Assembly: GCA_964016885.1 (NCBI GenBank)
Contig: OZ024743.1
Coordinates: 193,440,001-193,504,000, forward strand
Direction: 5' to 3'
Length of the DNA stretch: 64,000 bases
Source of the DNA: Eledone cirrhosa
Taxonomy: Eukaryota
The position numbers and the translations under genes were made by a program. The notes below the pieces were generated by a model, which had not been told where the DNA came from, did no database searches, and worked only from the letters and a program-made list of their open reading frames with translations. The stretch's first letter is position 1. Each line of letters opens with the position of its first letter. This document shows, piece after piece, positions 1,299 through 47,751 of the stretch.

Positions 1299-2773
1299 GA
1301 ATTTTCAAGATTGGTGGGACGAAGATATCCTCAAATTGGAGAACTGGTCTGAATGCTTGTGAGAGAGAGAGGACTCTGCTAAAGGCACTTGGTAGATGGT
1401 AGGCAGATGGTAGGCACCTTAGTGCTGAATGATAGATTTAAGTCTACCCTCTAACTATTTCCAGCATAAGGAGAGAGAGAGCGAGAGAGAGATAGAGAGG
1501 GTGAGAGAGAGGGAGACAGAAAGAGAGAGAAAGAGATATCCACTGATCAAGTGTCAAACTAACTGGAATAATTGGAAACTAAAAACAAAATTAGAATTTT
1601 GTGTTTCGCTCTAACATAGCGGATATATAAATGTATTTGTGAGATTTATATTGAATAATAATAATATTTGATTCGTTTGCAAGCAAACAGCCTCATTACT
1701 CTATGTGTTTTAGACAACCATCGTCATCCCTTTGTTCTAGCAGTGACAGAGAGAAACAATCGACAATGTTGTTTCTGGGTTATTGCTCTTTGTTGATTGT
1801 TTCTCTGTATCACTGTTAGAACATAAGGATGGCGATGGTCATCTAAAAAACAACGTAATGTGGCTGTTTGCTTGCAAACGAATCAAGCAGTGGATTAGCA
1901 GTATCGGTAGAGGGTTGGATGCCATGCTTTGCAGCATAGAATTACAGCCCTTTATGACCTGAGTTCAAATCCCACCAGGATTGAAAAAATAAAGCACCAG
2001 TAATGCACTGTGGTAATTGCTGGCCTTGTGCCAAAAGTAGAAACAATTATTATTCAATATAAAACTCACGAATACATAACTGGAAATTGTAATAATTTTG
2101 ATGGCTTGTAGTGCCTTGAGGTCAAATAATTTAGGTGAGGATATATATAATAAATCATAGTTATAGGACTAAATGAAAAGAAAATAGAATTTATGTTAAC
2201 ACTTACTGTTAACCAGAAGCCAATAACTTCAGCTGTAAAACTGAAATAAACCATTTTCAAAAAGAGATTATCGTGTATAAGATGGTAGAATGATGTAAGT
2301 GAATATTTTTTCATACATTATTTGTTCTAGTTAACAGCAACATATAGTTTAAGATTTTAGTGGGGTTGAATCATGGTTTAGGGCCTTATTGTTATTATCT
2401 GATAAAAAATCTTTTGAATACTGAATTTGTATTTGGTATTCATGCCAACCCTTACCTATGATCTTGGGTAATGAATGAAAAAATATGACAGGAATACAAT
2501 CGGCCGAAATGGGGTTCCTCTGAAGGGTCTTTGGAGTAACGTTATTCAATAGAATGCATAGCTCGGAGATCAACGAGTCATTCCAGATAGAGCTGCTACT
2601 TCTCTGAATTGACAGATCACAGCAGGGGCTCCAGGGCAATTACTCCCTTTGCCCTCGCACCATTAAATCCGAGCCTGACTCCCATCCCAGCACTTTGATA
2701 ATTCAACAACTAAAGAATACATGTAGCTAATCAGAGGCTAACAATTATTAATGTTTCATGAATTATTTTATAG

Positions 2774-2926
2774 CTGAAAGTCGTAAAATATTACATGAAC
2801 TAGAAGTAGAGAAGATGTTGATAAGTCTGTTGTCTCATGAAAACTCTACCATTCAGGCAGCTGCTGCTAATACATTGGCTGTCATGTGTGAAAATCTAAC
2901 ATGTCGACAGGCAGTTGTAGATTACG
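2774..2926 (+). CDS. ARMC3: ARMC3 coding exon (ARM repeat)
   Basis: AESRKILHELEVEKMLISLLSHENSTIQAAAANTLAVMCENLTCRQAVVDY, resembles ARMC3 'RKLFHEQEVEKCL..AMCEN'; TAG/GTAAG. Confidence 0.93.
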
Positions 2927-3393
2927 GTAAGTAGATATATAGATATATATATCATTGTTTAATGTCCATTTTCCATGCTAGCATGAGTATGATGAACTGT
3001 TCCTTTGTGAGAGATCACTCACACAGAACTGATTTTGGCCTGGTTTCTACGACTGGATGCCTTTCCTAGGACCAACTTCATTTACAGTGTGTGCTGGATG
3101 CTTTTTATTGTGACACCTACATGACCACTTTACAGTGTGTGCTCGGTACCTTTTATCATGACTTCTACAGAACCACATTTACAGTGATGACGGGGCATTT
3201 TTTTTCATGACACCTACACGACCATTTTACAGTGTGGGCTGGGTGCTGTTGTAAAAATTCAAGGGTAAGATATTGTTGAGACAAATGTATCTACATTATG
3301 CATATTTCTACGATTATATAGGCGCAATGGTATAAGAATATCTGAGAGAAGAGTTGTTATAAGATCTGACCATCCTTAATTCTGACCATCCTT

Positions 3394-3425
<32 letters not shown>

Positions 3426-4052
3426 CAAAACCTTTTCAGGTTTCCCTTGAAGAAGAAAATCAGGGTAGAGAGGGAAGTGATGCTTTCCAGCCAGTTTGTT
3501 GAAAAATGGGTGAGAGAGGCCGGCTCCAAGTGAATGGGCCTGCTCTGAGTGTGAGCCTGTAGATTGGAGGAAGACAACTGGGACAGGGCAATTGCCCTAG
3601 AAATCAGAACACTCATGGTCTTATGGTTTTTTTTTTTCCATGAGCAGCCATCGAATGTACCATTGTTAAAATTTGTTATTGTTACTTTTGTTTTTACTAT
3701 TGTTAAACCTATCTTTACGGGGTTGATAGAATAAAGCACAAGTAATGCACTGGGAATAATTTTCCCATCGCCCAAAATTGCCATCCTTGTGCCTAAAGTA
3801 GAAGCAATTATTATTATCTTTAAGTTAAGGGCGATGGATTGGCAGAATTGGTAGCGGGTTGGACGCCATTCTTTGCAGCAAAGAGTTACGGCCCTTTACG
3901 GTTTGAGTTCAATCCCGCCAAGATTAACTTTGCCTTTCATCCTTATGGGGTCGATAAAATAAAGCACCAATAATGTAATGGGATAATTGCTGGCTTTTAG
4001 TAGTTATTATTAGTATCTTTAATTATATACACATATATATATTTTGTTACAG

Positions 4053-4161
4053 AGGGTTTTCTACCACTTGTACGTCTTCTCCGTTCAGACAATGGTGAAA
4101 CACTACAGGCAGTTACGCTTGTTCTTCGCTACCTTACAAATGCCAACCTATCAAATTGTTT
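4053..4161 (+). CDS. ARMC3: ARMC3 coding exon (ARM repeat)
   Basis: EGFLPLVRLLRSDNGETLQAVTLVLRYLTNANLSNC; CAG/GTATG; phase consistent. Confidence 0.92.
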
Positions 4162-6219
4162 GTATGTATTTCTACAGATTCTACAGTTTCAATTGTTTTA
4201 GTTCTATTCTTGAAGTCTCTTTGATGCCTACTTTTGTTAACATGTTTCTAATGAAAAACTCCTCCTCCTCCTCCTCCTCCTCCTCCTTCTTCTTCTTCTT
4301 GCTCCATGAAGCCGGGGTCATGCTAAGCCAGCGATCCCAAAGCATCGTCGTGTGTAGAGCTGACTCGGTTTTGTAACAGGTTGATGGTTCTTCTGGGTGG
4401 GTTGTTGACCTTCCGCAGAATAGTTGGATGATGGAGCTGCCATTGTGGTGGCGAGCTGACATGCTGTGGGTAACTGTTGGTCTGGAACCTCCCTGGGAGA
4501 CCGACCTGCCTTGGGTGGCCCTACCAGGAGCAAAGCTCTAGATGGTAATACTCTTTAGGATTTACAGAACACACAAGCCCTGTTGCCACGACAAGACCAA
4601 ACCCAGGAGGGGGCATAATGAAAAACATTAATTATTTAAGTTTTCAAAATTAATTATATAAATAATGAAAAAAAGGGGAGAAGGGTAAAGAAGGGCAGAT
4701 CTGGCAGTATAGGAAAGTAAAGGAGAGGACTATAAAATGCCATAAATGAGAAGAAAAGGAAAGGAAGAGCAAAGACTGTTCAGCCACGGAAGAAAGAGAG
4801 GAGGAAGAGGAGAGGGTGACAGGGGCAGTTAGTAATATAATTTAACTTTCTCATTATTATACTAATGAAGGGCAGTGACTTAGCAATATCAATTGAGCAT
4901 CTGATAAAATGCTTTGTGGTATTTAGCTATGACTTTCTATGTTCTTATTTGAAATTCCATTGAAGTCAGCTTTGCCTTTCATCCTCGCAGGGTCGATAAA
5001 ATAAAGTACCAGTTAAATACTGGGCTCAATATAATCGACTTTCCCCTCCTCCCAAGTTGCTGGCCTTGTGCCAGTTTTAGAAAGAATTATTAAGCTAATA
5101 TTTGGAACATAACTTAACAAAGATTAAAATTATTAGGGAAGATTTTTAGATTAATATAAACACTTAAAATAATCAGTTTTGTATTGTAGAACCAGGGGCA
5201 GTTTCAGGTAATTTTGGTATCAAAGAGGTTAAAATATGAAATACGTAGTTTGCTATATATATTTTAACAGATCTAATTTTAACAATACACTGATCTGATT
5301 GTTTTTTTAATATAGTTATCCTCCAAAACTATTTTCTACTCTACTATGTTAACTGCCTCACCCATACACACCAAGTGTGGTGTGAAAGTAACTTCAATTG
5401 CTTCAAAACAAGAAGGCCATTTGTCTGGAAAATGTACCTGCAAACAATGCATATCAGAGCTTGCTCCTCTCTTTACCAAGCGCTCTCTCTCTCTGATGTG
5501 AATACACACAACATGAACAGCTTCTCTGGCCCCTCTAACTAATGTTCCTTATTTTCAACTTCTCAAGAGCAATAGAGATGGTTCTCTCCAACTCAGTTTC
5601 AGTTTTGGTTTTGTCCGGCACACTCCATTCTATACATGAATGCCCCTCACCCCACCCACAGTAACACCCACTCCTATATAGATGATAGATATTACCCTTC
5701 ATTGCTCTCTGCCCTTCATCATATAAGTATATCAATCAAGATTTTAATCATCATCATCATCATCATCATCATTTTACATCTGCTTTTCCCTGCTTGCAAG
5801 GGTGGGACGGGAACTGATTCTGGCTTGATTTCTACAGCTGGATGCCTTTCCTAACACCAACCTCATTTACAATGAGTGCTGGGTGCTTTTTTGCAGTGGA
5901 ATGATAGGGACTCCAGTCCCTATCATCTCATTTCTATAGCTGAGTAAACTGGAACAATGGGAAATAAAGTGTCTTGCTCAAGGAAACAACACATCACCCG
6001 GTCTGAGAATTGAACTCACAACCTTTCGATTGCAAGGCCAATGCTCTAACCACTAAGTCATGTGCCTCTTTAATATATAAAATAATAATGTTTTCTTTAA
6101 ATAATAATGAAAATGATTGTGTACAGTGCTCAGATGTACTACAACTCATCAAAGGTACATGTATGGTACATAGAATAATAGGAACCCTTTAAAATGGGTG
6201 GTTTTATTTCATTGAACCA

Positions 6220-6600
6220 GAGCTAACCATAGTATCAGAGCTGTGATCTCTCAATTCAGAGAAGTAGCAGCTCTATCTGGTGTGACTCTCTGATCTCCGA
6301 GCTACGCACTCTATTAAGTAATCTTACTACAAAGACCCTTTGGAGGAACCCCATTTTGGCCACTTGTATTTGCGATTATATTCATTCAGAAAGAATCACT
6401 GGACAGATTTTACAGGCAAAATCAGCAGGAGACCTAGGGGTAGACCCTGAGCAAGATGTTTGGATAATATCCATGAGCTTGGCTGCTCTCAACTTGGGGA
6501 TTCAGCCAAATCAGTTGGAGATGATTGCTTCGGACAGAACCCACTGGAAGGTGTGTTTGAGGACTCTGCTCCTATGACCATCTCAGGAGTATGTAGGCAA
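6220..6600 (+). mobile_element. short repeat family derived from an RTE 3' end
   Basis: Encodes decayed 'WLDNIHEL..LGIQPNQLEMIASDRTHWKECLRTLP'; related copies near 2490-2620, 8745-9120, 9470-9720, 26480-26650, 53640-53870. Confidence 0.65.
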
Positions 6601-7744
6601 AGAAAAAGAAGAACCAAAGCTGGTTTTAACCAAATTGATATCAAAAGGGTTAAATCCACAGCTAGGATAAATTATAAGAATATATTAACTACAATAAACA
6701 AAATAATATTAAAGTTTCTTCCTTATACATCTCATCTATGGAATTCTCCCCCCAGCTTCTTGCTCTCCTGACTTCCACAATTTGCAAAAATTCAAAAGCA
6801 ACATCAATCACCATCTTTTCTCTTTCCTTGAATTATGTTTTTTCTGTAACCCCTTTGCATTTTAGTGGCTACAAGAATGTAGAAGAGCCTCTGGAGATAT
6901 AATAGTTATACAATATTAAGAATATAAACTATGTTATCTCGAATATAGAGATAATGATGATGATGATGATCAAGTTTGAAGCGTCAGTGTATTAGAGTTT
7001 CATCATCATCATCATCACCGTTTTACGTCCGTTCTTCCACGCTAGCATGGGTTAGACGGGTTGTCCTGTTGTGGGCAGTGTCTGGTCGGCTGACCATGTC
7101 TTGCTCATACAGGAACTGATCTGGCTTGATTTCTACAGCTGGATGCCCTTCCTAACACCAACCTCAGTTTGTAAAATAATAATAAGAACTCAACACAAGG
7201 AAGTTGTTAAAACAGGAAAATGTCGTCAATGACATTGTCTGGTAAGATCGTTGAAACCACAGGCGGTCTAAAAGTTGATGAGTGTATATAAATGTTTGTG
7301 TGATCTTCTCTTGTCGATTTTCTTCCTTTTCTTATTTCTTCCTATCACTTCTGTTGGCCAAAACACTTCTAACTGCTGATTTCTTTCCTTTGGGGTAAAT
7401 CTTACCCGACACTGCATTGAGTTCTTCCCATTATTCTACGAATATTAAGAATATTTGTTTGGAATACAACTCGGGCTGTGCATGTTCCATTGTCATTGCT
7501 TCAGTAATAAAGTCTTGAGAAAAGCAAAGAGTGTTTGAGACTCCTTTATGACAAAAGAAACTCTTAGCATGTCTGAAATACAATGGATGAAACAACGATG
7601 AGGTGGGGAACAAATAGTAAACTGCATGCAGCATGGAATGAAACTGAAACAACGAGAATGGAACATGCACAGCCTGAGTTGTATTCCTTTATAAATGATT
7701 GCATCTGAAATTTTTATCTAAAAAAATATTTCTTTAAATTCTAG

Positions 7745-7921
7745 AGAAGTTTCAAAGTCACATGGAATTGGTCCATTGATTCATTTATTGGAAGATAGTA
7801 ATGAAGGAGCTGTGTCTAACGCCGCAGCTGTTCTCACTAATCTTGCTCTTCATGAATCTCTGCGACAGGATGTTAAGCAGAAAGGTGTTATTAGTGCTCT
7901 TGTCAAAGCACTTAAATTTGT
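7745..7921 (+). CDS. ARMC3: ARMC3 coding exon (ARM repeats)
   Basis: EVSKSHGIGPLIHLLEDSNEGAVSNAAAVLTNLALHESLRQDVKQKGVISALVKALKF; TAG/GTAAG. Confidence 0.93.
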
Positions 7922-7947
7922 GTAAGTTTCTACTACTTTATACTCTT

Positions 7948-8366
7948 CATCATCATCATCATCATTGTCCTCGTCATCATCATCGTCATCATCACCATCT
8001 TCATCATCATCATCATCACCACCACCACCACCATCAGAACTCTCAACAACATCATCATCATCATCATCAGAGCTACCAACATCACCACCGTCACCACCAC
8101 CACCACCATCATCACCACCACCGCCACCACCCTCACCACCACCACCACAACCACCACCACCACCACCATCAGAACTCTCAACAACATCATCATCATCAGA
8201 GCTACCGACATCACCACCACCACCAACCACCACCACCATCACCACCACCGCCACCACTATCACCACCACCACCATCACCAGCACCACCACCATCACCACC
8301 ACCACCATCACCACCACCACCACCACCACCACCACCACCACCATCACTGCCACCGCCACCACCACA
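7948..8366. repeat. (CAT/CAC)n compound microsatellite, intronic
   Basis: Direct reading; includes a duplicated CAGAACTCTCAACAACATC block. Confidence 0.95.
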
Positions 8367-8549
8367 ATATTGCCCTGGGCTAGTAATGGCTCAATATTTG
8401 ATCCTCCCTTCTGTTTAGTGGCCATCATTCTTGGGGTTAGGATGAAATATTTCTCCAATAAACATCAAAGATATATTCTTCATTCTTCTGATAATTGTTA
8501 GTGTTACCTCATATTATTTTTACTAATAAGATTTATTATATTATTTCAG

Positions 8550-8625
8550 AACCAACAAAGTAACTCAGAGCCAGGTGTTGATGGCACTTGCCAATTATGT
8601 AAACAATCCTTCATCAAGAGATGAA
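8550..8625 (+). CDS. ARMC3: ARMC3 coding exon
   Basis: TNKVTQSQVLMALANYVNNPSSRDE; CAG/GTAAG. Confidence 0.9.
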
Positions 8626-9206
8626 GTAAGTCTTAGCAATTTACACAATAATGGTACCACCTCCTCCTCCTCCTCCTTCTTCTTCTTCTTCTTCTTCTTC
8701 TTCTTCTTCTTCTTCTTCTTCTTCTTCTTCTTCTTCTTCTTCTTCTTGAGAGGGTTGTCAGGTCAGAGTTCTCAAGCATGCCTTTTAGAAGGTCCTATTA
8801 TCAGAAGCAACTGTTTCCAAATGATTCAGTTGGATCCCCAAGTGGTACCATGCCAGGTGATGGATGTTATCCAACTATCTTGCTCTTGATGTACCGCTAG
8901 GACCTGTTGGCTTTGTCCTGACAATCTATCCAGCGATTTACTCTTTTGATATTCTAACCTCATGTCCATAGTACTGGAGCTGTGATTTCTCAATGCAGAG
9001 AACTAACAGCTGTACTTAGAGTAACTCCCTGATCTTTGTGTACTTAGAGTAACTCCCTGATCTTTGAGCTACACACCCTATCGAGTAACATTACTCCAGA
9101 GATCCAGAGATCCTTCAAAGAAAACTTAATATTCACAATCATATTCTTTTACTAACTATCCAAGATAGTTCATTTACTCTAATGTTTTTTTCTCTAATTG
9201 AATCAG

Positions 9207-9343
9207 TTAAGAAATGCCAATGGTGTAGAAACAGTGGTGAAGATGTTGAAATCTGATAACAAAGATGTTGTGAAAAATGCAGCATGGACTATCTACATAG
9301 CAGCTGCTGATGAAACAACAGCTTTTGAGATATGTGTTTGTGG
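9207..9343 (+). CDS. ARMC3: ARMC3 coding exon (ARM repeat)
   Basis: LRNANGVETVVKMLKSDNKDVVKNAAWTIYIAAADETTAFEICVCG; CAG/GTAAG. Confidence 0.93.
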
Positions 9344-10021
9344 GTAAGTATCTTTTAAAAGAATTATTCTGCTAAAATATCGTACAAGCTTTAGGAAACT
9401 TCTTACAAGATAAAGCAGTTGGTAGTTGTTTGCATTGTAAGTTAGGATGTATGTCTTCCTTTCTAATTCTTCGCCCACTTATTCCTGAGAGGGTTGTTGG
9501 GGCAGAGTCCTGAAATACTCCTTCCAGCTGGTCCTGTCAGAAGCAACCATCTCTAACTGATCCGGTTGGGTCCTCAAGCAAGTCCAGCGAAGCTCATGGA
9601 TGTTATCCAAACATCTTGATTGAAGTCTACTACCCTTGGGTTTGGTTTTTGTCTGTAAAATCTGTACAACTATTTCCTCCCGAGACATTCTAGCCACATA
9701 CCTATAGTATTGGAGCTGTGGTCAAAGTGGCTGGTGACTTAGGATTACAAAGATATTTGGAAAATAATTCAGGAACTCATTCAGGTTTCAATCTTTTGAT
9801 CATAAAAGAGAGATTGACAAAATAAATACCAGACTTGAAAAAATAAGTACCGGGAGGTTGATAGCCACAGTCTAATAACTGAAACCAGTAAAAGAGTGTC
9901 TGAGGATTTTATTTATTATATATTTATTTTTATGCTACTGATAATGATATTTTTTAAATATAACAATTTTCTATAAATTCTGTTGTAAGGAATTCCTACT
10001 ATGATTTTATTTGTTTCCAAG

Positions 10022-10146
10022 AGGTCTGAAAACTCTCCAAGAGATTAATTTGAACTCAAATCAACGTAGTTACTTCACCGAAGCTGCTCTTGAACGACTG
10101 TTTGACAACAACCTTTCTGCAAAGTTTTCATTTTGTGGCTACCTGG
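10022..10146 (+). CDS. ARMC3: ARMC3 coding exon
   Basis: GLKTLQEINLNSNQRSYFTEAALERLFDNNLSAKFSFCGYL (ARMC3-like 'NNLS.K.S..GYL'); AAG/GTAAG. Confidence 0.92.
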
Positions 10147-10726
10147 GTAAGAAAAAACAACAGCAATTTTCTTCTGATATTTAATAATAATAATAATGAA
10201 ATTATTGTGTACAGTGCTCAGGTGCACTACAACTCATCAAAGGTGCATGTATAGTACTTAGAATAATGTACAAATGTCAGGAAAATGAACAGTGTACGAG
10301 TCATGAAATACATGTGTGTGTGTGTGTGTATGGAGTGGGGATATCAGGGATAGTGTTGGTGAATTTCAGGAAGCATGGAGGTTTTAAAGGATGCAGTGTC
10401 TTGACAGCTAATAACTGAAGCAGGTAGTTTATTCATCTATATCAGGGATTTCAAAGTTCATGTTCCAATCAAAAGGTCCTGGGTTCTAACCCAGGTCCAT
10501 GTGATTTGAAAGTGAACTTTTTATTTGAGCAGCATGACTGAGATAGAAAATGCATTGTGTGTGTTTGTGTGTGTAGATTTTACATATATGTATATGCATA
10601 TATATATATATGTATGTATATATATATGTATGTGTATATATATATGTATATATATATATATATATATATGTATAAATATATATATATATATATATGTGTA
10701 TATATATATGTGTATATATATATGTG

Positions 10727-10757
<31 letters not shown>

Positions 10758-11360
10758 TTATATTTACATTAACTATGTTAATTAGTCTAATTTCTTAATC
10801 ATGATGAAATTGCAGTCTGAGCAAAATGTACATGTCTCAGTGGCCTAGTGGTAGGTATTAGAGATGGTGGAGATCCTGGTCTGGGCTTCAATCTCAGTCA
10901 TGATCTGCACTAAATTCTATCATTTGTTGTAGTGCACCTGAGCATTGTACACAATAATTTTCATTTTCCTTATATTTTTTCCTTAAATATATTTTTTTCT
11001 TAATAGTAATATACTTTATAATATTATACCTAAATATAATTTTGTATAAACAGTGCTCTGCAAAATATAGATTTTAGTCATTTTTGAGCTGATTTAGGGT
11101 ATATGATTGAAATAATTTTTATTTTAATCTTCTTTTATAATATATATATATATATATATATATGTCATCATCATCATCATCATCATTGTTTAGTGTCTAT
11201 TTTTCCATGCTTTCATGGGTTTGATGGGTTGTTCACAGTGTGAGACAAATCTGGCCAGAATTGGCCATGCTGTACCTTGCTCCGACAAGGACTATAAATT
11301 TGGCTGAGGATTTTACAGCTGGACGCCCTTCCTAACACCAACCACATTTACAATATATAT

Positions 11361-12741
11361 CATCATCATCTTTGTTTAGTGTCCATCTTCCATGCTAGCA
11401 TGGGTTAGACGGGAGTTGTCCCACTTGAGGAAAGGTTGGTCGGGTGACCGTGTCTCGCTCATATAGGACTATCTGGCAGGTTTTCTACGGCTGGATGCCC
11501 TTCCTAACACCAACCACATTTACAGTGTGGAACTGGGAACTTTTTACCCTGTTACCTACACAGCCACATTACAGTGTGGACTGTGTTTTTTTTTGTTGTG
11601 ACACCTACACGATCTCAATCTCATTATCTCATTTATTTGGACTGGATGTTGTGGTACCAACTTTACAGAGAGAGGGTGGTGTTGGTGGGAGTGGGAGGAT
11701 AAGGTAGGGGTAGTGGATTGGGGTGTATATTTGGTTAAGAGGTGCTCACTTTGTACATAGGCAAAGCAGGTCTTCTGTGTTATTGTCTTAGAGAGGTGCA
11801 AGTGTGTAAGGTCGGAATTTATCAGATCATCACAGGTTTTTCTGGGTCTACCTACTCCGTAACTACCATCAATTTTGATCGCCCTGTACTTTTTTTATAC
11901 AGCTATCATCTTTCATGCGCATCACGTGGCCATACCAACGTAGTTTTCTCTCAAGTAAACAGCATCTGATCCCTCTTATTCCTAATTTCTCACTTAGTTC
12001 ATTTATGCTTTGCCGTTCACGTATATTACTATTACACATCCAACGGAGCATGCATGTTTCGTTCCTTTCCAGTCTGCGCAGGTCCTCTGCACGTAATGCC
12101 CATGTCTCACTGCCATGTAGCATTGCTGTTCGTATACAGGCATCATACAATCTGCCTTTCATTTTTAGAGAGAAACCTTTTGTGGCCAACAGCGGTATAA
12201 TCTCTCTGAACTTTTTCCATCCCGTTCTGACTCTGGCTACTGTACTTTCAGAACACCCTCCACCACTGCTGATTTCGTCACCCAGGTAACAGAAAGTGTC
12301 CACTATTTCTATAGAACCATCTGGGCATAGAAGGAGCTAGTATCCTGTGGACACTTGGTACTTATTGCACCTGAGCATCGGTCACATATAAAGTCTACGT
12401 TCTTAGATAGTTTACCTGTGAACCCACTACATCTTTTATGTACCCATACTTTGCATTTGGGACATAAAATGGAATTTCTGCCTACTCCTTTCCTACGCAC
12501 TGAGCATGGCCATTTCCCTGAGGGCACCTGTGCCCTATTTTCCTTTCTACAAACTAGAACTTTAGTCTTAGACAAGTTAACTTTAAGGCCTTTTGATTCT
12601 AGGCCATGCTTCCATGTTAAGAATTTCTTCTCTAGTTCAGCCATTGATTCAGCTATGAGCGTTAGATCATCTGCATATAGGAGTTCCCATGGGCAGCCGG
12701 TCTTGAACTCCTCTGTTATAGCTTGAAGGGCAATAATAAAT
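11361..12741 (-). mobile_element. RTE-clade LINE, 5'-truncated and frameshifted
   Basis: LLYADD RT motif, PHD-like Cys cluster, 'FCYLG', 'RWYGHV.R'; 3' UTR with (ATG)n tail. Confidence 0.9.
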
Positions 12742-12831
12742 GTGGTGTATTATTATGGTTGATGATTGTAGCAGCATGACTGGGGTAGGAAATGCATCAT
12801 GTGTATGTGTGTGTAAATTTTAAAGAGTTAC

Positions 12832-12872
<41 letters not shown>

Positions 12873-13432
12873 TACAAACACACAGCATATTTTTATGGTT
12901 GGTATTCCATTCCTTATTCTGCAAATCTTCTATTTAACTCTTTCATTATTGTATTTCTAATGGAATTCGCTGCCTATGTGTTTCAGAGAACTTTGAAAAC
13001 AATCAAATATTTGCAGGAATTCAATATATTAATTAACTATTTCATTATTAAGCTGATATTTAGAACATTACTTAACATAAAAATATCTTAAATATGATTA
13101 TGATGGAAGGATTTGATATAAGTGAAGCAAAATTGAATAATTAAATGTGTGTGTTAGTGTTGCAGGCATGATGATGAAAATGATTATGTTGGTGTGGAAG
13201 GCATGAGGCATTGAAGGAAGGAAAAAACATCATATCTAACAATTCTTCATTTACATTGTAAACATTTATCACTACAATAAATAAATATGGCTGCTTTGAA
13301 TCATAACAGTGTTACTGTTCATACAAAAAAAGATGAAAAAAAAAACATGTGACAAATAACAACATACAGGAATAGTTACAAGTTTGGAATAGCAAAGAGT
13401 AGTTATAAGGATGAAGATGTGTGTATGGAGGG

Positions 13433-13750
13433 GTGTGATGGCACATGGCTTTGTGGTTAGGGTATTTGGTTTACAATCATAAGGTTGTGAGTTTGATTCC
13501 TGGTGGCGTGTTATGTCCTTAAGCAAGACACTTTATTTTACGTTGTTTCAGTGCACTCAGCTGGCAAAAATGAGTTGTACCTGTAATTTGAATAGCTAAC
13601 TTTTTCACATTCTGTATCATGCTGAATCTCCCTGAGACTACATTAAGGGTACGCATTTCTGTGGAATGCTCAGCCACTTGCAAGTTAATTTCATGAGCAG
13701 GCTGTTCCAGATCAACTGGAACACTCATCGTTGTAACCGGTGGAGTGTCT
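13433..13750 (+). mobile_element. tRNA-derived SINE family B
   Basis: tRNA-like head + GTCCTTRAGCAAGACAC + CTGAATCTCCCTGAGA body; copies at 21572-21898 and 60814-61085; related heads at 18450-18730 and 63010-63270. Confidence 0.8.
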
Positions 13751-14540
13751 CAGTCAATGGAGAGGTGTGGCTTGAGAAAAGATATTATCTGGATCTTGAT
13801 GTCAAGCAGATTTATTAACCTGGGTGCCATGGCCTGGCTGTGGCAGTGTCGTAACGACCACCAGTGATGGCCACAGCCAGTCATTGGCTGTCAAATTTTA
13901 GAGACCAGCAGAGTGAGAGTGAGAAAGGCTACTGAGATTGGCTTAATTACCTTTGGTTTCACATAGCTATTTCTGGTGATATTATTGCTAATTTAGCCTG
14001 AGTTTTGTACCCCTTCTATAATTTTAGAATGAGCTTTCTTATATCATAAATGCAGAACAGTTTCATGCACTTTGGTATGAAAAGGGTTAATGTGGTCACT
14101 GAAATGGATTATTTTTTAAATTGATTATTAAATAATAAAATAACGTAAATAACATTACAAATATATTGTTATATATGTTAGATAATATATATATACATAA
14201 ATAACATTAAAAATTGCTCACAATTCTTCCAGAATAACATTACAAATATAATGTTGTTGATAAACACAAATATAAACACATATAACAAATACAATTAATC
14301 ATTGCGAGGAACCTCACAAAAAACAATGCATCAAAATATATGACTAGCTTGCCTTACTGAGGCGTCAAATGATGCCCATGAGGGTGCCTGGTTGTTTCAG
14401 TACCTTAGCCTCACTATCACTGGTAATATGATAGTAAAGCACTGAAACAACCAGGTACTTAGTTTAGAAAAATATTTAGACAAATATAAAAAGGAAATAG
14501 TGAAAATATTCTTATTTTGATATGCAATTTTATTCCACAG

Positions 14541-14679
14541 CTCCTACCAATATAACTAGTGATGGCTTTTTCTATGCTGGTCGTCTGAAAATGGATGAAG
14601 AATTTAAGTCTTTAGATGAACTAGGTTCTCAGAAAATGAAAGACCGCAAAGCCATTATTGTTGTTAATACAAAATTTGA
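14541..14679 (+). CDS. ARMC3: ARMC3 coding exon (start of EDR1-like domain)
   Basis: APTNITSDGFFYAGRLKMDEEFKSLDELGSQKMKDRKAIIVVNTKF ('DGFYD.G'-like motif); CAG/GTAAG. Confidence 0.92.
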
Positions 14680-15705
14680 GTAAGTATAGCAGAACAAATG
14701 ATATTCATTGTATTTGTGCTTGAAATGTTAATAATGGTGTAATTGTATAAACATTATCAAGTAGTAATGGGGTTTCCTTTAGATGTTCAGTGTCATAGGG
14801 CAGTTGAATGTTTCATGTCATTCAGAGACAGTCATATATATATAATGATGTCGACGCGATGGTCCTGGTTAGTCAAATTTTTCCTGAATTCAGTCTCTTT
14901 CGTGGCTATGGTCACTGCGGCCCTTCTATCGGTCGCTGTCTTCATTTTTTTGCAAAGCTGTCTAAACGTAATGTTATAACTCTAGGGTTATATACCCTAT
15001 CGAGTGCTTAGTTGCACACCGAAACTGCAATCGTTAGCTTGGCTGCAACCATGGCTTCGTTGATGCTGTACTAAATTTTGTATTATTATCTCCTAGAACT
15101 AACCATTAATTGATTAATTTAATTAGACAATTCTATTGATCGATTAATGGTTTATGTTTGTTTGATAACTTCTAGTTGAGTGCTTAGTTCGGTTTGTGTA
15201 AGGGAATCTTTATTCATTGTTCCAAATTTTGAATTGACCGCCAAAATCAGGGGTTACCTCCCTTTGGGAAAACCATGTGTTTGCTAGCAGCGCTTACTCT
15301 AGCATAAAACACCCGAGCGGACTAGAACGAAAAACTTGTTGACGAAGTAAAACTCCATTGTTCTATCTTCAAAAACCATTAACTTGCAGACCCCTGCAAG
15401 TGGATTTTGTTGATTTCGGATTTACAGAAACCTAGCGGAGATATTGTGGATTACATGTGATGTATGTTATATGGTATATATTATATGTATTATGTGTTAT
15501 GTATGTTGTCGACGTGATGGTCCAGGTTAGTCAAATTTTTCCTGAATTCAGTCACTGCGGCCCTTCTATCGGTTGGTGTTTTCATTTTGCCTTCATATAA
15601 CCTATTGAGTGCTTAGCTGCACATCGAAACTGTATTCGTTAGCTTGGCTGCAACCATGGCTTCGTTGATGCTGTACTAAATTTTGTATATATATATACAT
15701 ATCAG

Positions 15706-15757
15706 GGCTTTCGTGATGATTTCTTTTGAATGAAACAGTTCAGGTCCTGTAGAAGCC
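15706..15757 (+). ncRNA. degenerate hammerhead (family 1)
   Basis: Same layout as 17914-17964 but core reads GUGAUGA; stem I GGCUU../GAAGCC. Confidence 0.5.
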
Positions 15758-16027
15758 ATTTCTATACAAAAAATTTTCCTGAGTTCAGTTTTTTTTGTTG
15801 CTATGGCAATGCAGCCAGACTGTCGGTCGCTATATTTGATTTGCAAAGCTCTCTAAACTTATTGTTATAACTCTGGGGTAATATTCTCCATCGAGTGCTA
15901 AGCTGCATTCCGAATCTGCATTCATTAGCTTGGCCGCCGCCAAAAGCTTCGTTGATGCTGTACTAAAATTTGTATATATATATATATATGAGGGTGTTAA
16001 AGTTTGCTTGAAGCATTGTGAAATGTG

Positions 16028-16503
16028 TAAAATACGTAGTTAAGAAAGCCACAACAATGCAGAGGGAAATCTCAAGGTAGGAAGTGAATGATAGATAGGA
16101 GAAACAGGTGAAAGTGAAAATTGAGAGAGACAAAGATGAAAACAAAACAAAGGTAGAAGGGTTACCGTAGTGGAGATTTAATCCCAATATTTCGAGCTCA
16201 CGCCCATCAACGGGGGAAAATTCCAAAAGAGGGGGAACAGGCCAAGCGGAGAAAGTTGTGATGTCGTTAAGACAGGAATGCCAACCATGCCCCCCCCCCC
16301 CCCCTTTTGGAATTTTCCCCCGTTGATGGGCGTGAGCCCGAAATATTGGGATTAAATCTCCACTACGGTAACCCTTCTACCTTTGTTTTGTTTTCATCTT
16401 TGTCTCTCTCAATTTTCACTTTCACCTGTTTCTCCTATCTATCATTCACTTCCTACCTCGAGATTTCCCTCTGCATTGTTGTGGCTTTCTTAACTACGTA
16501 TTT

Positions 16504-16505
<2 letters not shown>
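16028..16505. repeat. inverted repeat, 202-bp arms
   Basis: 16028-16229 vs 16304-16505, two mismatches seen; explains the twin ORFs 15963-16226(-) and 16307-16582(+). Confidence 0.95.
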
Positions 16506-16585
<80 letters not shown>

Positions 16586-17338
16586 TTCTAAATGCTTCCA
16601 CTTCAGACTAAACTAAAGCTGGCACACTTTAAAATTAACACCCTAGACAAATTAACCCATTAGCAATGTATACTTCTCCAAGATTCCAGAAACCTCTGAC
16701 AACTATATAATGCAGACCAAGCAACCACATAGAGATACCCAAATCAGCTAGCCCTGGAGGGCTTCCATGAAGATAATCGGATAAATGGAAGCATTCAGGT
16801 GTCAAACTAAATGCTTTACATTCCCCTGAATCTGGAAGTTTCTGCTGAAGATAGAATGGGTATTCCAGTGGCTCTGAACCTCTTTTTGTGGCAAAACTTT
16901 CTCCATTCCTCTAAATCTGAAATTTCTGTTAGGGATGGAATTAGTATTTCAATAACTCTGAATCTTCTTTGTGACAAAAAAAAAAACAAGGTCAATGTTG
17001 ATGATTTCTTCTAAGAAAATATACCAAGTAGATATTTTCAGAAGTAATTAACCCCTTCAAACCAATCCCAGCTGGAACTTGTATCCACTCCTCAAAGGGT
17101 CTCTCACAGCAGTCTGCCAACACAACTATCCCCCCTTCTTCTACCCTCTTCTACTACCAGTCACAACCAAGCTATAAGCAGAGAAGGATGGACAGAGAAA
17201 TGAACTCTCTTCTCTTATTTAATTATTATTATTATCACTATTTTTACAAATATGCAACTTAACAATATTCTGCATATCCGCAATTGACAATGCATATAAT
17301 GCTGAAACCGGTATTGTAAATAAATTAATGTTGTGATA

Positions 17339-17712
17339 TGGAGGCACATGGCTTAGTGGTTAGAGCAATCGAAAGGTTGTGAGTTCAATTCTCAGACCGG
17401 GTGATGTGTTGTTTCCTTGAGCAGGACACATTATTTCACATTGCTCCAGTTTACTCAGCTGTAGAAATGAGATGATAGGACTGGGGTCCCTATCATTCCA
17501 CTGCAAAGTGGTCATAGAGGTGCCACGGCAAAAAAGCACCCAGCCCACACTGTAAAGTGGACGTGGAGGAGCCACGGAAAAAAAGCACCCACCACTCACT
17601 GTAAATGAGGTTGGTGTTAGGAAGGGCATCCAGATGTAGAAATCAAGCCAGAATCAGTTCCCGTCCCACCCATGCAAGCAGGGAAAAGCGGACGTAAAAT
17701 GATGATGATGAT
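17339..17712 (+). mobile_element. composite SINE: tRNA-like head + RTE-type 3' tail
   Basis: Head as in family B; tail GTTGGTGTTAGGAAGGGCATCCAG...(GAT)n shared with RTE 3' UTR; copies 5748-6068, 26823-27168, 50061-50406 (all -). Confidence 0.8.
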
Positions 17713-17814
17713 ATCTCACTGAAAAAAATCTCTTCAACATTTTCTACTGAAAAAATCTTTTTCCTTTCTACTATTTGTTTATATATATCAACCCGTGGGT
17801 TACTTTTCTACATT

Positions 17815-17855
<41 letters not shown>

Positions 17856-17859
<4 letters not shown>

Positions 17860-17976
17860 TATAGAAAAGCTTCTACAGGACTAGAACTGTTTCATTCATG
17901 AGAAATCATCATGAGCTTCCTGATGATTTCTCATGAATGAAACAGTTCTAGTCCTGTAGAAGCTTTTCTATATTAA
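17856..17976. repeat. perfect inverted repeat, 56-bp arms
   Basis: 17856-17911 is the reverse complement of 17921-17976. Confidence 0.95.
17914..17964 (+). ncRNA. type I hammerhead ribozyme (family 1)
   Basis: Stem I AGCUUC/GAAGCU; CUGAUGA 17920-26; stem II UUC/GAA with U.U closing pair; GAAA; stem III ACAG/CUGU; GUA cleavage after 17958. Confidence 0.75.
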
Positions 17977-18352
17977 AACATTTATACTCTGCTATGTATT
18001 GAGTACCTTACTTACTGTGGTTACCCCCGATTCAACCCGGAATAACTTATATATATATAACAGTCAATCGACAAGGTCCCAGACCTCATTCACTTAACAA
18101 ATGAAACAATCTTCCTCTTCTTCTTCTTGCTGCTGCTTTTGCTGCTGTTGCTACTACTACTACTACTACTACTACTACTGCTACTGCTGCTGCTGCTACT
18201 GCTGCTGCTACTACTATTACTACTGCTACTACTACTACTACTACTACCCTCACCACTATTACTGTAATGACCTTCTGCTACTTGTGTGTTGTACAATATT
18301 TCTGACTTGTTATGTCTTGTTCAGTAGATAACTATGATATTTCTCTTTGTAG

Positions 18353-18427
18353 GACTCAGACAAAAGAAGAGGAAAAACGGGAAGAGTGTCACACCTCACA
18401 ACTGGTTAGGATACTTAAAATAAAAAT
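18353..18427 (+). CDS. ARMC3: ARMC3 coding exon (charged linker)
   Basis: TQTKEEEKREECHTSQLVRILKIK; TAG acceptor; the GTAAG donor at 18428 gives the phase needed by the next exon. Confidence 0.75.
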
Positions 18428-19586
18428 GTAAGCATTCATGATTAAATATTGTGGAGGTGCGTGGCCAGTGGTAAGGGTGTTGGACTTATGATCATAATGT
18501 TGTGGGTTTGATTCCAGGGTTGGGTTGCATGTTGTGTTCTTGAGCAAAACACTTCATTTCATGTTGCTCCAGTGTACTTAGCTGAAAATGAGTACCAGAA
18601 ATAGTTGGTGGTTTAACCCTGAGATGGACAGGTGTCCTCTCCAGGGGAGAGTCTTGTACTCTCAGTTGCTTCACAACATGAAACTGGTATAAGTACCCTC
18701 CTAACGAGCCTTCTGACTTAAGACAGACTTTATATGATTAACGCATTAGCATTTAAACCAGCCGTATCCGGCCATTATTCTCTCACCTCTTTCTGTTCAA
18801 ACCGGCTGTAACCGGCCACTCATACTTATGTTTAGGTATTGTTCTCAAAATAAATAATATCAAAATCTCCTAGATTCAATATTATGTGAGATAATTATGT
18901 GAGATAAAGCCTTTACCATGAAAATATAATAGTAAATATAGAGTAATGTAAATGCTAAAGAGTTAAATATAACAAGGCATTCTGTATGACACACTAATGA
19001 TTCTGCACTTTCATCATCCTTATTGAGCAATGAATATTGATTTCTAATTTAGGCACAGAGCCAGCAAATATTTGGGGAGGGGTAAAGTTGATTAAATCAA
19101 CCCAGTACTTAACTGGTATTTTATTTTATCAACCTGGAAGAATGATCTTGATAACTGACTGTAGAGAGTTCTACATCTCATAATGGTTTTGATAACTAAT
19201 TGTAGAGTTGTTAATAAGTGAACTGTAAAAATAGATTTTCAAATCTTGTACCACAAAAATTTCACACGTCTAGGGTTTATATCAATTTTAAGTAGAATCC
19301 CTGTTTTGATTGAAGTGAGAACATTTTAAGTTCTTTTGAGTGGGTGAGAGGGAATATGAAAATTCTTTTTGTCATATCTGACACAAATCTAAGGCAGTTT
19401 CTAGTGGTTTGGTATGAAAAGGGTGTATTGATTGATAGGTGGAAACAGCTTAACCCTTTGACCCTATTATCTCACATAATGAATCATAAATTTGTTTTAT
19501 AGCCTGTATTCCTTTATTTTTGAGTTATCTCCCTTCTTATTTGTACTTGTTAGTGGATGTTGAACATTTTGAAAAATTCATTTTAG

Positions 19587-19802
19587 GCGGGCACGAACTC
19601 ATAAAGATCGATATGACAAGACTAAAGAGGATGAAGAATCTTCTACAATAACTGGTGACGAAAAATCCGTGATAGGATCGGAGAGTGAAGAAAAGAATTT
19701 TGTCCTACCTGAAGATCCTGAGCTATGTACTTATGTAGAGGAAGTGATTAAAGATGTTTCTAATGTGAATAGCATTCAAGAACAAATCATTACATTAGCA
19801 AA
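19587..19802 (+). CDS. ARMC3: ARMC3 coding exon
   Basis: RARTHKDRYDK...FVLPEDPELCTYVEEVIKDVSNVNSIQEQIITLA; TAG/GTAAG. Confidence 0.9.
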
Positions 19803-19819
19803 GTAAGTGGTGGAAATAT

Positions 19820-20270
19820 TATCTTCTTCTTCTTGCTCTTGCTCAACGAAGCCAAGATCATCAGAAGCATAATGGTGCTTAGAGCTGACCAGAACCACCA
19901 GTGCCCTCCATCACTGGTGGTTCTGTGCCAGCTCTTCTGCATCCGCCAAGCTGATGTTGAGCCCCCGGAGATCTTCCCTGATGACATCCAGCCATGTGAT
20001 GCAGGGCCTGCCACAGGGTATCTTCCAACCTGCAGCCACTGTATCAAACGTGAGTAAGGCCCTGGTAGGATGATCTGATGGAAAGTGGAGGACATGTCCG
20101 TACTAGTGCATGTGGTGGATAGCTATGAGACGGGAAGCTGTGGGGTGATGCATGGGTGCATACAACACCTTCTTGGAAACGTGGTGGTGCATCTGATGTT
20201 TTTGATGGTCTTCAGCTCTCTGCTATCAAAGTTGTCGATCCTCTTTGCCAGTGTCTTTGTGAGGAGGAGA
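19820..20270 (-). mobile_element. degraded RTE-like LINE 3' fragment (different family)
   Basis: Frameshifted 'GRPRITWLD..REDL..WR..V'-type RTE C-terminus; (GAA)n-like tail. Confidence 0.55.
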
Positions 20271-21169
20271 ATGGAGATATTATTGATTTCAAATTTAGGC
20301 ATAAGGCTAGCAGATTTAGGGTGAAGGGCAAGGTTGATTAAATTAACCCCTGTACATGACTGGGTCTTTATTTTAACAATCCTGCAAGAATGAAAGACAA
20401 ATTTGGGGCAAGGTCAGATTCAATGGGGAAAGGGGGTAGGGGTCAATTGTCCTGGGGCGCCTGCAATGGGGGGGGGGGCTCAGTAGCAACGACCATAGAA
20501 ATTTATTTGTGCCCTCATACAGTGGAACCTTGGTTCACAAACTTAATCCATTCCTGAAGGACGTTCATCACCTGAAATATTTGTAAATCGAAACTATTTT
20601 TCCCATGTGAAATCTTGAGAGAGAAATACAGTGATAGAGAGAGACTGAGTGTGAAAGACAGAGATAGATATATTCCCGGCAATATTCCAAGCTTGTTGCC
20701 AGCCATTGTTGCCAGCTTGCTTGTTCATTACTCAAGATACCGTTCATGAACCGAAAAGTTTTATGTTTGGAAAAATTGTTCATGATGAACTGAGGTTCCT
20801 CTGTATAAACGATTTGGCCCTTTTGTATTGGAATTGATTCTCTTTCTCCATTCTGTAGAGAAGGATAGAGAGGATGAAAGAGTGGAAGAGAGAGGATGTG
20901 AGAAAAAGAGAAAGAGAGTAAAATAGAGAAAGGTAATATGTTCTAAAATATATTGTTACTTCCATATTACACCTGGGAATTTCCAGGTACTCCTAATAGT
21001 ACATATATATAAGATGGAAAAGTGATTAATTGAATGAGAGAATGAAAGTGATAATGGAGAAAAGGGAAGATGTTGGGGGGGGGGGGGCGATATTTATGTT
21101 ATGCATTTTTAAAGCTAGAGGTAGTGCAGTTACACATTTTAAACTTTTGAATTAAATTTATTTCTTCAG

Positions 21170-21332
21170 ATTTGTTTCAAATAAGATGGGTGGAGCTATT
21201 TCTCGAGAACAAGTAAAAAACTTCAGTTGGGAGTTACCTCTTGCCATGCTTCAACACGAATATGCCTCAAATATTGTCTCAATTGGGTCAATTAAATTTG
21301 GTAACCAATTCCACAGAGCTTTGCTATATAAG
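21170..21332 (+). CDS. ARMC3: ARMC3 coding exon (EDR1-like domain)
   Basis: FVSNKMGGAISREQVKNFSWELPLAMLQHEYASNIVSIGSIKFGNQFHRALLYK ('KMGG...HRALLFK' EDR1 motif); CAG/GTATT. Confidence 0.94.
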
Positions 21333-21401
21333 GTATTTGATGCAATAAATCCTGTTTTGTGATAGTGGTGTGGCAGTGCCACAATAAAATACACCTGGGA
21401 C

Positions 21402-22026
21402 CAGGGCTGGATTTAATGGGGAACACATAACAGCTAATGTATTGGCAGCAGTTGCCTAAATGGTAGAGTTTTCATGAGACAACAGACTTATCAACATCTT
21501 CTCTACTTCTAGTTCATGTAATATTTTACGACTCTCAGTTACAAAATAATTCATGAAGCATTAATAATTGTGAAGGTGTGTGACTTTGTGGTTAGGGTAT
21601 TTGGTTTATAATCATAAAGTTGTGAGTTCACTTCCTGGTGGCGTGTTGTGTCCATGAGCAAAACTCTTTATTTCACGTTGCTCCACTCCACTCAGCTGAT
21701 AAAAATGAGTTGTACTTGTAATTTGAATGGCCAGCCTTGTCACATTCTGTGTCACGCTGAATCTTACCGCGAACTATGTTAAGGGTATGCATGTATGTGG
21801 ATTGCTCAGCCACTTACACATTAATTTCATGAGCAGGCTGTTCTGTTGATAAGATCAACAGGAACACTCATCATTGTAACCGACTGAGTGCCTTCTTTCT
21901 TTAATAGATGTTAGCCTCTCATTGGCTACATGTATTCTTTAGTTATTGAATTATCAAAGTGTTGGGAGCCAGGGCTGGATTTAATGGGGGGCAAAGGGGG
22001 CCTCCCAAAGTCTAAATCCAACCCTG
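21402..22026. mobile_element. hAT-like non-autonomous DNA element carrying a captured ARMC3 exon fragment
   Basis: TIRs CAGGGCTGGATTTA / TAAATCCAACCCTG; degenerate 8-bp TSD CCTGGGAC / CCTGGAAG; related ends near 2645-2676, 20409-20460, 29921-29968. Confidence 0.7.
21423..21571 (-). pseudogene. inverted duplicate of ARMC3 2741-2889 (acceptor + 116 nt of exon)
   Basis: 110/116 identical over the exon part; acceptor AG->AA and in-frame CAG->TAG; upstream intron copy continues at 21909-21999 after a SINE. Confidence 0.92.
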
Positions 22027-22374
22027 CCTGGAAGTGTTTGGCATTTGGAAGGGCATTCAGCCATAGAAACTATGCCAAAAAATGAAACATATGTGCAAGA
22101 TGCAGTTGTTTGATATGTCTGGATTCAGAACTCTACATCTTGTCTAACTCCTGCAATTATGGAAAATAGGTGCAAAATGGCAGCAGCAGCTGATGATGAC
22201 AATGATGATGGTGACAATGATAACAATTATTAGTGTATAAACTAAATTGTTTATGGGATTATATTTCAAGAGTAAGAGTAAGGCGTAAGAAATATGCAAA
22301 TGTATATTTTCCATATTTCAAAACATAAAATAAAAAATTGTGGTCTAATATTTGTTTTTCTTTTGTGACTTTAG

Positions 22375-22500
22375 GTATTAGCTGATCGTGTCCTTATAAG
22401 GTGCTCTCTTGTACATGGCGATTTCTTCAAGGCATGGAATATTGTGATGCTTGAAAATAATGAACAAGAAACTTTACATGAAAAACATACTGAAGAAAAG
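22375..22500 (+). CDS. ARMC3: ARMC3 coding exon (EDR1-like domain)
   Basis: VLADRVLIRCSLVHGDFFKAWNIVML...EEK; TAG/GTGAG. Confidence 0.93.
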
Positions 22501-47528: not shown

Positions 47529-47751
47529 CTGCAATAAATGATGATATAATGAGTTGATAGTCTCTCTATTAAAATACCCAAAATATTCATTTGCACTTTT
47601 ACTAGTTTTAGTCATTAGACTGGCCATGCTAGGGCACTGCTTTAATTTAGTTGACCATATCAAATCCAGTATTTATTTTTTCCAAGCCTTACTATATTGA
47701 TTTTTTTTTTTTTTTTTTACAAACAAATGTAAACATAAACATGAACTAATA

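Follow-up and report, generated by a model that had tools for sequence, protein, structure and literature searches.

A stretch of the 64,000-nt window (the whole stretch of DNA that was analysed) that includes part of a coding exon recurs backwards in a downstream intron of the same gene, between pieces of a transposon. This raises the questions of how the copy arose and whether its potential to pair with the exon in the pre-mRNA is of any consequence. On the reading that accounts best for the locus, the 207-bp backwards copy probably arose in a single event, when the repair of a broken MITE switched templates, and is now most likely in decay, with no function under selection.

The inverted copy and the surrounding transposon pieces

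The gene is ARMC3, as given in the first-pass annotation and confirmed by homology to octopus ARMC3, and the suspected coleoid cephalopod is an octopus (the exon is 94% identical to Octopus sinensis ARMC3 and 92% identical to that of O. bimaculoides). The relevant features are as follows.

~2618..2677, minus strand: MITE left-end remnant at the source, ~19% off the family consensus, truncated by another repeat at 2493-2623
2678..2889, plus strand: source segment, 96 nt of intron including the acceptor AG (2772-2773) and 116 nt of exon (alignment)
2774..2926, plus strand: ARMC3 coding exon, 153 nt, phase 1-1, ARM/HEAT repeat region; the first 116 nt are copied
2779..2853, plus strand: 75-nt run identical in exon and copy (copy side 21459-21533), candidate gene-conversion tract (alignment)
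21170..21332, plus strand: ARMC3 exon preceding the insertion, with the EDR1/CTR1/ARMC3 domain (PF14381)
21394..21401, plus strand: left target-site copy CCTGGGAC, within an older host repeat
21402..21421, plus strand: outer MITE left end, 20/20 to the consensus, followed by base 21422, which fits neither template
21423..21571, minus strand: inverted copy of 2741-2889, with the acceptor AG changed to AA and a CAG codon to TAG; 9 transitions (alignment)
21572..21911, plus strand: later SINE (21572-21900) and second TSD copy (21901-21911)
21912..21969, minus strand: inverted copy of 2678-2740, with 5 substitutions and a 5-bp indel in our reading of the alignment
21970..22001, plus strand: inner MITE left end, 32/32 to the consensus, a direct repeat of the outer end
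22002..22026, plus strand: right end of the MITE; a ~243-bp deletion at GGGC microhomology separates it from the rest of the inner left end's element
22027..22034, plus strand: right target-site copy CCTGGAAG, probably the surviving CCTGG and then flanking DNA, with 11 bp deleted in between
22375..22500, plus strand: next ARMC3 exon

In the alignment, 21423-21571 and the reverse complement of 2741-2889 differ at 9 of 149 bp (E 7e-60); the exon part is identical at 110 of 116 bases (6 mismatches), in agreement with the count and the perfect 75-nt run reported in the first-pass annotation. The remainder had been described as 21909-21999 mirroring 2645-2743. An inverted match of 2645-2751 to 21901-21998 exists (81% identity), but 21970-21999 is the recipient's own element end. 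Likewise, the transposon end that had been placed at 2645-2676 is present just upstream of the exon, but it lies at 2677, so that the captured host DNA is 2678-2889. The copy is located downstream of the exon in the same gene, at a genomic spacing of 18,533 nt, within an intron of 1042 nt (21333-22374), and starts 69 nt downstream of the splice donor at 21332. When the genome is searched with 21390-21580, two matches result, the query itself and the source, so the copy is single with its parent in cis. The later SINE with TSD-like ends was recognized correctly: the TSD copies TTAATAATTGT and TTAATAGATGT match at 9 of 11 positions, and the source contains this site once, at 2741-2751. The head of the SINE is presumably tRNA-like, judging by A/B-box motifs.

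The MITE family has a non-coding consensus of 300 bp with a TIR of 14 bp (13/14 matching) and many copies (71 exact matches of the end 20-mer in the genome). Among 30 fetched loci, the right end is found within 1.5 kb in 21 and is absent within that distance in 9; in 17 of the 21 complete copies, the 8-bp flanks match at 6 or more positions, indicating an 8-bp TSD. The CAGGG start of the element is taken here to be a hAT trait. Ends of hAT type do flank the copy, as had been noted, but the two CAGGGCTGGATTTAATGGGG motifs (21402-21421 and 21970-21989) both represent the left end and repeat it in direct rather than inverted orientation, the inverted right end being 22002-22026. The degenerate 8-bp TSD that had been proposed matches at 6 of 8 positions as read; the best reading is that CCTGG (5/5) survives at the right and that the host repeat has lost the next 11 bp, which is the likely cause of the mismatch. 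After alignment of the host repeat, the use of these mismatches as an excision footprint or as a clock was dropped.

Relative to the family consensus, the MITE remnant at the source shows 10 substitutions and one 4-bp insertion over ~54 bp, and the probability of at least 10 changes is 0.001-0.01 if the remnant was consensus-like at the time of capture. Given this divergence and the 32/32 match of the inner end to the consensus, 21970-21999 is the recipient's own end, not a copy of 2645-2677. The fused 57-bp left-right end form and the end variant at the source each have one exact match in the genome, and both a mobile 57-bp mini-subfamily and a subfamily with the source-type end were rejected on these grounds. 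One other locus among the 30 has a left end, then ~1.1 kb of other DNA, then another left end joined directly to a right end. It was not counted as a second case of capture: roughly the first 400 bp of the intervening DNA come from inside a longer subfamily, a young SINE accounts for one part, and the 40 candidates scored per search included no unique donor.

Read on the bottom strand from the right flank, the order of the pieces is right end (25 nt), left end (32 nt), source flank 2678-2889, left end (20 nt), and left flank. Capture by template switching in gap repair, one of the two origins suggested in the first-pass annotation, fits the two element ends, the microhomologies and the single copy. 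In such a path, which is reconstructed from one sequence, repair synthesis would first copy the right end of the recipient MITE and jump at GGGC to the recipient's left end, with the loss of ~243 bp. At the tip of the left end, the new strand would slip onto the related end of the older MITE 19 kb upstream, continue through the flank of that element into the ARMC3 exon, and be rejoined to the 20 nt that remained of the left end of the recipient; the SINE would then insert into the copy. The junctions contain the expected short homologies, namely CCATTAAATCC and the terminal CCTG shared by both element ends at the inner junction and GGGC at the deletion. The antisense orientation follows from the two MITEs facing opposite ways, so that no selection needs to be invoked. 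The outer junction has one unmatched base and lacks clean microhomology, which counts against the repair model.

Probable neutral decay, predicted pairing and possible editing

The SINE differs from the consensus of its 19 best relatives at 21 of 286 non-CpG positions, and this divergence spectrum was used as a neutral clock for the copy, at 1.0x and 0.8x rate. The probability of 9 or fewer mismatches is 0.21 and 0.48, respectively, and that of 6 or fewer exon mismatches is 0.19 and 0.41; thus, the divergence of the copy is in keeping with neutral decay (P 0.19-0.48). In the copy, the acceptor is gone (AG to AA) and a stop has appeared (CAG to TAG). Four of the 6 exon differences are at silent third positions, as expected if gene and copy drift apart; 5 of the 9 mismatches yield G-U pairs, against a neutral expectation of one half for transitions; and the alignment contains no compensatory change between exon and copy. 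Two observations lean away from plain drift, both from tests chosen after the data were seen: with 9 mismatches spread over 149 bp, an identical run of 75 or longer has P 0.014-0.026, and the lack of any transversion has P 0.019-0.030. A further point against is that there are 2 non-silent exon differences where ~6 are expected (~91 sites at 7%). The identical run would likely be a later gene-conversion tract or chance. The locus pair L010/L011 was discarded as a neutral control for transitions, with too few differences (5 in 3019 bp, 5 of them transitions). Altogether, a function of the copy is unsupported.

The exon:intron duplex that had been postulated for the pre-mRNA is possible and stable in silico (-233 kcal/mol), its exon part being predicted at -193 kcal/mol compared to -23 and -17 for the self-folds. 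Under the preferred reading of a decaying capture, such pairing would be incidental. The span of the gene contains 25 inverted matches, among which the exon/copy pair ranks 4th by score; thus, long pre-mRNA duplexes are common in this gene. According to Barak et al. 2020 (PMC7006430), long inverted duplicates in pre-mRNA are common in other animals as well. No other match among the 25 overlaps an exon, which counts against an inert copy.

It is unlikely, but conceivable on modelling grounds, that the copy acts as an accidental or co-opted editing-complementary sequence (ECS): once the upstream introns are spliced, the exon would lie ~1.3 kb away and a 116-bp duplex could persist, with ADAR editing the exon, until splicing takes out intron 21333-22374. 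In favour of this, the DNA is from an octopus, the duplex includes 37 adenosines, of which 27 are recoding and 10 silent, and its exon part is predicted to be far more stable than the self-folds. The loop between exon and copy shrinks to 1269 nt if the upstream introns are spliced first, or ~70 nt more if there is an additional exon for O. sinensis residues 661-683, which was not found within 14679-19587, the frame being open without it. Given this loop and two mild anomalies, the 75-nt run and the 9 transitions out of 9 mismatches, incidental editing is possible, and the scarcity of non-silent changes points the same way. Against this, the total divergence fits neutrality, G-U pairs are not in excess, and compensatory changes are absent. 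The adenosines A2778 and A2770, singled out in the first-pass annotation as facing C, do form A:C pairs but neither can recode, 2778 being the third base of GAA (E>E) and 2770 being intronic. The copy also lies inside another inverted pair, 18738-18970 and 22522-22754, whose arms are closer together and are predicted to pair more strongly (-281 kcal/mol). PMC4066801 gives a decay length of ~800 bp for the editability of human Alus; extrapolated to octopus and to a spliced loop, this fit, which is weaker across segments, predicts about zero at 18,533 nt and ~0.6% per adenosine at 1.3 kb. Furthermore, robust recoding in squid is 91% neural-type (PMC9068888), whereas ARMC3 in other animals is described as a motile-cilia and sperm gene (PMC12859697). 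The full scenario, in which the repair accident made in one step a 116-bp ECS for the gene's own exon, splicing cuts the loop from 18.5 to ~1.3 kb, ADAR edits, and the core is kept by selection or gene conversion, is improbable; if true, it would show the birth of new recoding clusters in cephalopods.

Whatever the outcome, the copy has G where the exon has A at 2778 and 2770, so that mis-mapped reads from the copy would mimic A-to-I changes at these sites, a warning for editing studies. Such reads can be told apart by the linked variants that the copy has at 2854, 2860, 2868, 2877 and 2883. The reverse artefact, A>G at 21458, is seen in the DNA contigs of two of the three runs.

Other explanations

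The second origin put forward in the first-pass annotation, aberrant transposition, is quite improbable and we do not adopt it. It would involve insertion of a second MITE at 2889/2890 in the exon, movement of the composite to 21402 and two subsequent deletions, or else the use of a cryptic end. The whole structure is indeed bounded by element ends and a TSD, but this path requires an exon-disrupting insertion along with the two further deletions, host sequence 2890-2912 is unlike a MITE end, the inner end is not that of the source element, and the copy is single in the genome. Origin from edited RNA was rejected: the copy contains intron and shows no A-to-G excess.

An effect on splicing is very improbable. 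Here, the duplex would mask the acceptor or allow its editing (A2772, UAG context), leading to skipping of the 153-nt exon, or would bring 21332 near 4053 for back-splicing. The copy spans the acceptor and 33 nt of intron unbroken, and skipping of this exon, which is in frame as annotated, would preserve the reading frame. However, the acceptor is transcribed 18.6 kb ahead of the copy and, splicing being co-transcriptional, would in most cases be used before the copy is made; the SINE has cut 58 nt off the intronic arm; and skipping would drop 51 residues from a repeat region with 94% conservation relative to O. sinensis. As for a circle, the pairing arm is part of the exon that precedes 4053; the pair 18738-18970 / 22522-22754 is a better-placed candidate, for a different circle. 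Finally, an assembly artefact is scarcely credible despite the abundance of repeats in the region: short-read contigs (three runs from one sample, possibly the assembly's own source) bridge 21100-21684, 21823-21999 and 21973-22067, and thereby all junctions, with 0 other letters and depth as in the flanks, and the copy is set apart from the source by 14 substitutions, an indel and a SINE with its TSD.

Comparison with known systems

The locus resembles the intronic ECS and inverted-repeat editing substrates covered in PMC4066801 in that a downstream intron sequence is complementary to an exon and the predicted duplex is long and near-perfect. In contrast to an ECS, the octopus partners are 18.5 kb apart, lineage-specific and free of compensatory change, the flagged sites are non-recoding, and the pairing is a prediction. 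In literature searches, with subscription journals largely outside their scope, none of the papers listed has a title on an ECS born from an inverted exon copy. If RNA editing turned out to be confined to the paired 116 nt, the locus would provide a dated natural experiment on partner distance and on splicing that brings distant partners into range. The long inverted match within one pre-mRNA, gone from the mature mRNA, is also shared with the inverted duplicated sequences of PMC7006430, where matches confined to pre-mRNA are much less depleted than those in mRNA; unlike those repeats, one octopus arm is a coding exon.

The closest parallel is with Pack-TIRs. Judged from the sequence and from Tan et al. 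2021 (PMC8277862), the copy fits a single-copy Pack-TIR of the gap-filling type, having TIR-element sequence on both sides, a TSD around the whole, a single copy in cis and microhomology at one or more breakpoints. In that source, single-copy Pack-TIRs have a median of 224 bp, 59.8% are on the same chromosome as the parent, and 208 of 370 are hAT; the octopus copy matches in size, cis position and superfamily, with hAT ends flanking a ~210-bp host fragment of exonic origin near its parent and homology at one breakpoint, although its distance of 18.5 kb is slightly beyond the 15-kb class. The words 'Octopus', 'mollus' and 'editing' are absent from the main text of PMC8277862, which reports antisense transcription of captures and one capture reused inside its own gene. 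There are also differences: the octopus left end is duplicated as a direct repeat, the element is 81% deleted compared to a median gap of 4.6% in PMC8277862, the switch went to the end of another, older member of the family beside the source, and the copy is antisense within an intron of the parent gene. In view of its three junctions, the dated insertion that followed and an evident cause of the antisense orientation, this locus appears to be a cleanly readable octopus Pack-TIR.

Inverted copy of an ARMC3 exon

The protein matches, the domain content and the gene structure agree with the assignment of this gene to ARMC3 in the first-pass annotation: of 15 candidates, two proteins match the exon product, namely ARMC3 from Octopus sinensis (94%) and from O. 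bimaculoides (92%); exon 21170-21332 matches PF14381 above the cut-off; and between 843 and 23820 lie 12 exons that are bounded by AG/GT and share a single open frame up to the stop. No exon for O. sinensis ARMC3 residues 661-683 was found at 14680-19586; such an exon could have been lost or have diverged beyond recognition, and the frame is open without it. An intronic CAG/CAA triplet array spans about 260 bp (1035-1300). The minus strand at 44113-60392 carries the 3' exons of a large cadherin gene, convergent with ARMC3 and Fat-like by domain order (cadherin repeats, EGF, laminin G, cytoplasmic tail). LINE reverse-transcriptase ORFs (33044-34627, minus strand; 29333-29950; 47899-49026; 51373-52161) lie between the two genes or in cadherin introns; one 527-aa frame combines RVT_1 with a PHD-like finger.

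The inverted exon copy previously reported in a later ARMC3 intron is real. Self-comparison of the window recovered both matches, 2741-2889 against 21571-21423 (94% identity, E 7e-60) and 2645-2751 against 21998-21901 (81%). All nine mismatches of the 149-bp match are transitions (2754, 2770, 2773, 2778, 2854, 2860, 2868, 2877, 2883); six fall within the 116 exon bases and none within 2779-2853. Once the SINE that splits it is removed, the copy extends to donor base 2678, the SINE-distal part showing, in our reading of the alignment, five further substitutions, of which one is a transversion, together with an indel of 5 bp. The copy stretch matches two places in the 3.0-Gb genome, itself and the donor. 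In three runs of a single sample, possibly the source of the assembly, contigs bridge 21100-21684, 21823-21999 and 21973-22067 without any other letters, and misassembly is excluded by the copy-donor divergence and the nested SINE. As a minus-strand exon the copy is dead, because AA now stands in place of AG at its acceptor and TAG in place of a CAG codon.

The enclosing element and a proposed repair path

Exact matches to the 20-mer at 21402 number 71 (control, 0). A right end lies within 1.5 kb at 21 of 30 fetched family loci, and in 17 of these 21 the 8-bp flanks agree at six or more positions. The consensus is 300 bp with 14-bp TIRs (15 full-size copies, mean divergence 8.9%), and by these sequence features the family is classed as a hAT-type MITE. 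The relevant ends are:

21402-21421, outer MITE left end, 20/20 to consensus
21970-22001, inner MITE left end, 32/32 to consensus, direct copy of the outer left end
ending at 2677, minus strand, donor left-end remnant, 10 substitutions and a 4-bp insertion in about 54 bp

Element ends do flank the copy as first described, but they are direct left-end copies rather than a TIR pair. The right end joins the inner left end at GGGC microhomology, with about 243 bp deleted between them, a fused form that occurs once in the genome. Because the flank beside the donor remnant has changed by only about 9% since capture (both lineages summed), the remnant was already old at capture and the inner end belongs to the recipient (otherwise P 0.001-0.01). 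The recipient sits inside an older repeat, 65-73% identical to its other copies (seven distinct alignments listed for each of two models); alignment to this repeat suggests that the last bases of the right TSD were lost to an 11-bp deletion.

A single synthesis path would account for all three junctions. Synthesis would have copied the recipient right end and jumped at GGGC to the left end, slipped at the left-end tip onto the related donor end (common CCATTAAATCC and CCTG), copied 212 nt of donor flank, and finished by end-joining to a 20-nt left-end stump, leaving one unmatched base. As the two elements are in opposite orientation, a copy made in this way had to be antisense. The SINE inserted later, at donor-equivalent 2741-2751.

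Further remnants of this family lie at 20417-20517 (+), 28894-28932 (-) and 29921-29968 (-). At another fetched locus, L020 (element positions 1-1332), a second left end is fused to the right end as in the ARMC3 element; inside, it consists in part of a longer subfamily and in part of a young SINE, and no donor for it was found among 40 scored candidates in each of two genome searches. Two other fetched loci, L010 and L011, are near-identical 3-kb segments (five differences) about 760 kb apart on C1, probably a recent segmental duplication or an assembly duplicate.

Divergence and predicted pairing

The SINE, which is younger than the capture, has 21/286 non-CpG differences (7.3%) from the consensus of its 19 best relatives, drawn from 40 scored of 9053 candidates; other copies differ by 2.5-8.4%. 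Simulation of an unconstrained copy alongside a gene in which only silent and intronic changes were allowed, with the mutation spectrum of these 20 SINEs, gives 12.2 expected mismatches in 149 bp at 1.0x rate and 9.8 at 0.8x (P for nine or fewer, 0.21 and 0.48). Copy-lineage changes, polarised by an assumed GC-to-AT bias, are estimated at 8/202 sites versus 16-20/286 for the SINE (Fisher P 0.27-0.11). Counting against plain drift are the 75-nt run (P 0.014-0.026 for 75 or more, given nine mismatches), the zero transversions (P 0.019-0.030), the 13 transitions in 14 (P 0.027 for 13 or more), and only two exon changes at non-silent positions, the run, transition and non-silent-position tests all having been chosen post hoc, after data inspection. 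Of the nine mismatches, five would pair as G-U, and no change is compensatory. The 75-nt run, with 12% divergence outside it, could be explained by gene conversion between exon and inverted copy, which leaves the transition bias unexplained. Selection may have kept the duplex; the total divergence is compatible with neutral decay.

The duplex is predicted to be strong, at -233 kcal/mol over the 149 bp and -193 for its exonic portion; of the 25 inverted matches within the gene span it ranks fourth by score and is the only one overlapping an exon. With 18,533 nt between them, the arms are separated by far more than the 800-bp decay length found for editing of human Alus, which is also weaker across segments (available text of PMC4066801). 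Because the exon is retained in nascent RNA after splicing, the loop would shorten to a computed 1269 nt, once upstream introns are removed and until the 1042-nt host intron goes, which would favour editing. The Alu fit gives about 0.6% editing per adenosine at about 1.3 kb, its transfer to octopus and to a spliced loop being our extrapolation. A2778 and A2770 face C, as had been noted, but neither site recodes (E>E and intronic, respectively); 27 other duplex adenosines would recode if edited. In squid, 91% of robust recoding is neural-type (available text of PMC9068888), and in other animals ARMC3 is described as a gene of motile cilia and sperm (available text of PMC12859697). That the copy acts as an editing-complementary sequence for this exon appears improbable. 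Mis-mapped reads can mimic such editing, the copy having G opposite exon A2778; A>G at 21458 in two of three runs comes from donor contigs aligned onto the copy.

Acceptor masking or back-splicing by this duplex is less likely, as in either case the upstream intron would have to remain unspliced while 18.6 kb are transcribed. Another inverted pair, 18738-18970 and 22522-22754 (233 bp, 87%, -281 kcal/mol, 3.55 kb apart), flanks exons 19587-22500, encloses the copy and would be a better-placed back-splicing candidate. ARMC3 introns also contain foldback elements at 16028-16505 (480 bp, 90% self-complementarity) and 1668-1886 (220 bp, 78%).

Comparison with known captures

The repair history is unusually legible here; the duplex geometry is tempting but unproven. 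The capture is a single-copy Pack-TIR, that is, TIR-transposon ends enclosing captured host DNA, and belongs to an already known class, for which the gap-filling route proposed here has been described. As described in the available text of PMC8277862, these captures are biased to cis, have microhomology at one or more breakpoints in 67.6% of cases, have a median of 224 bp, are exonic in 13.4%, and include hAT elements as their largest group.
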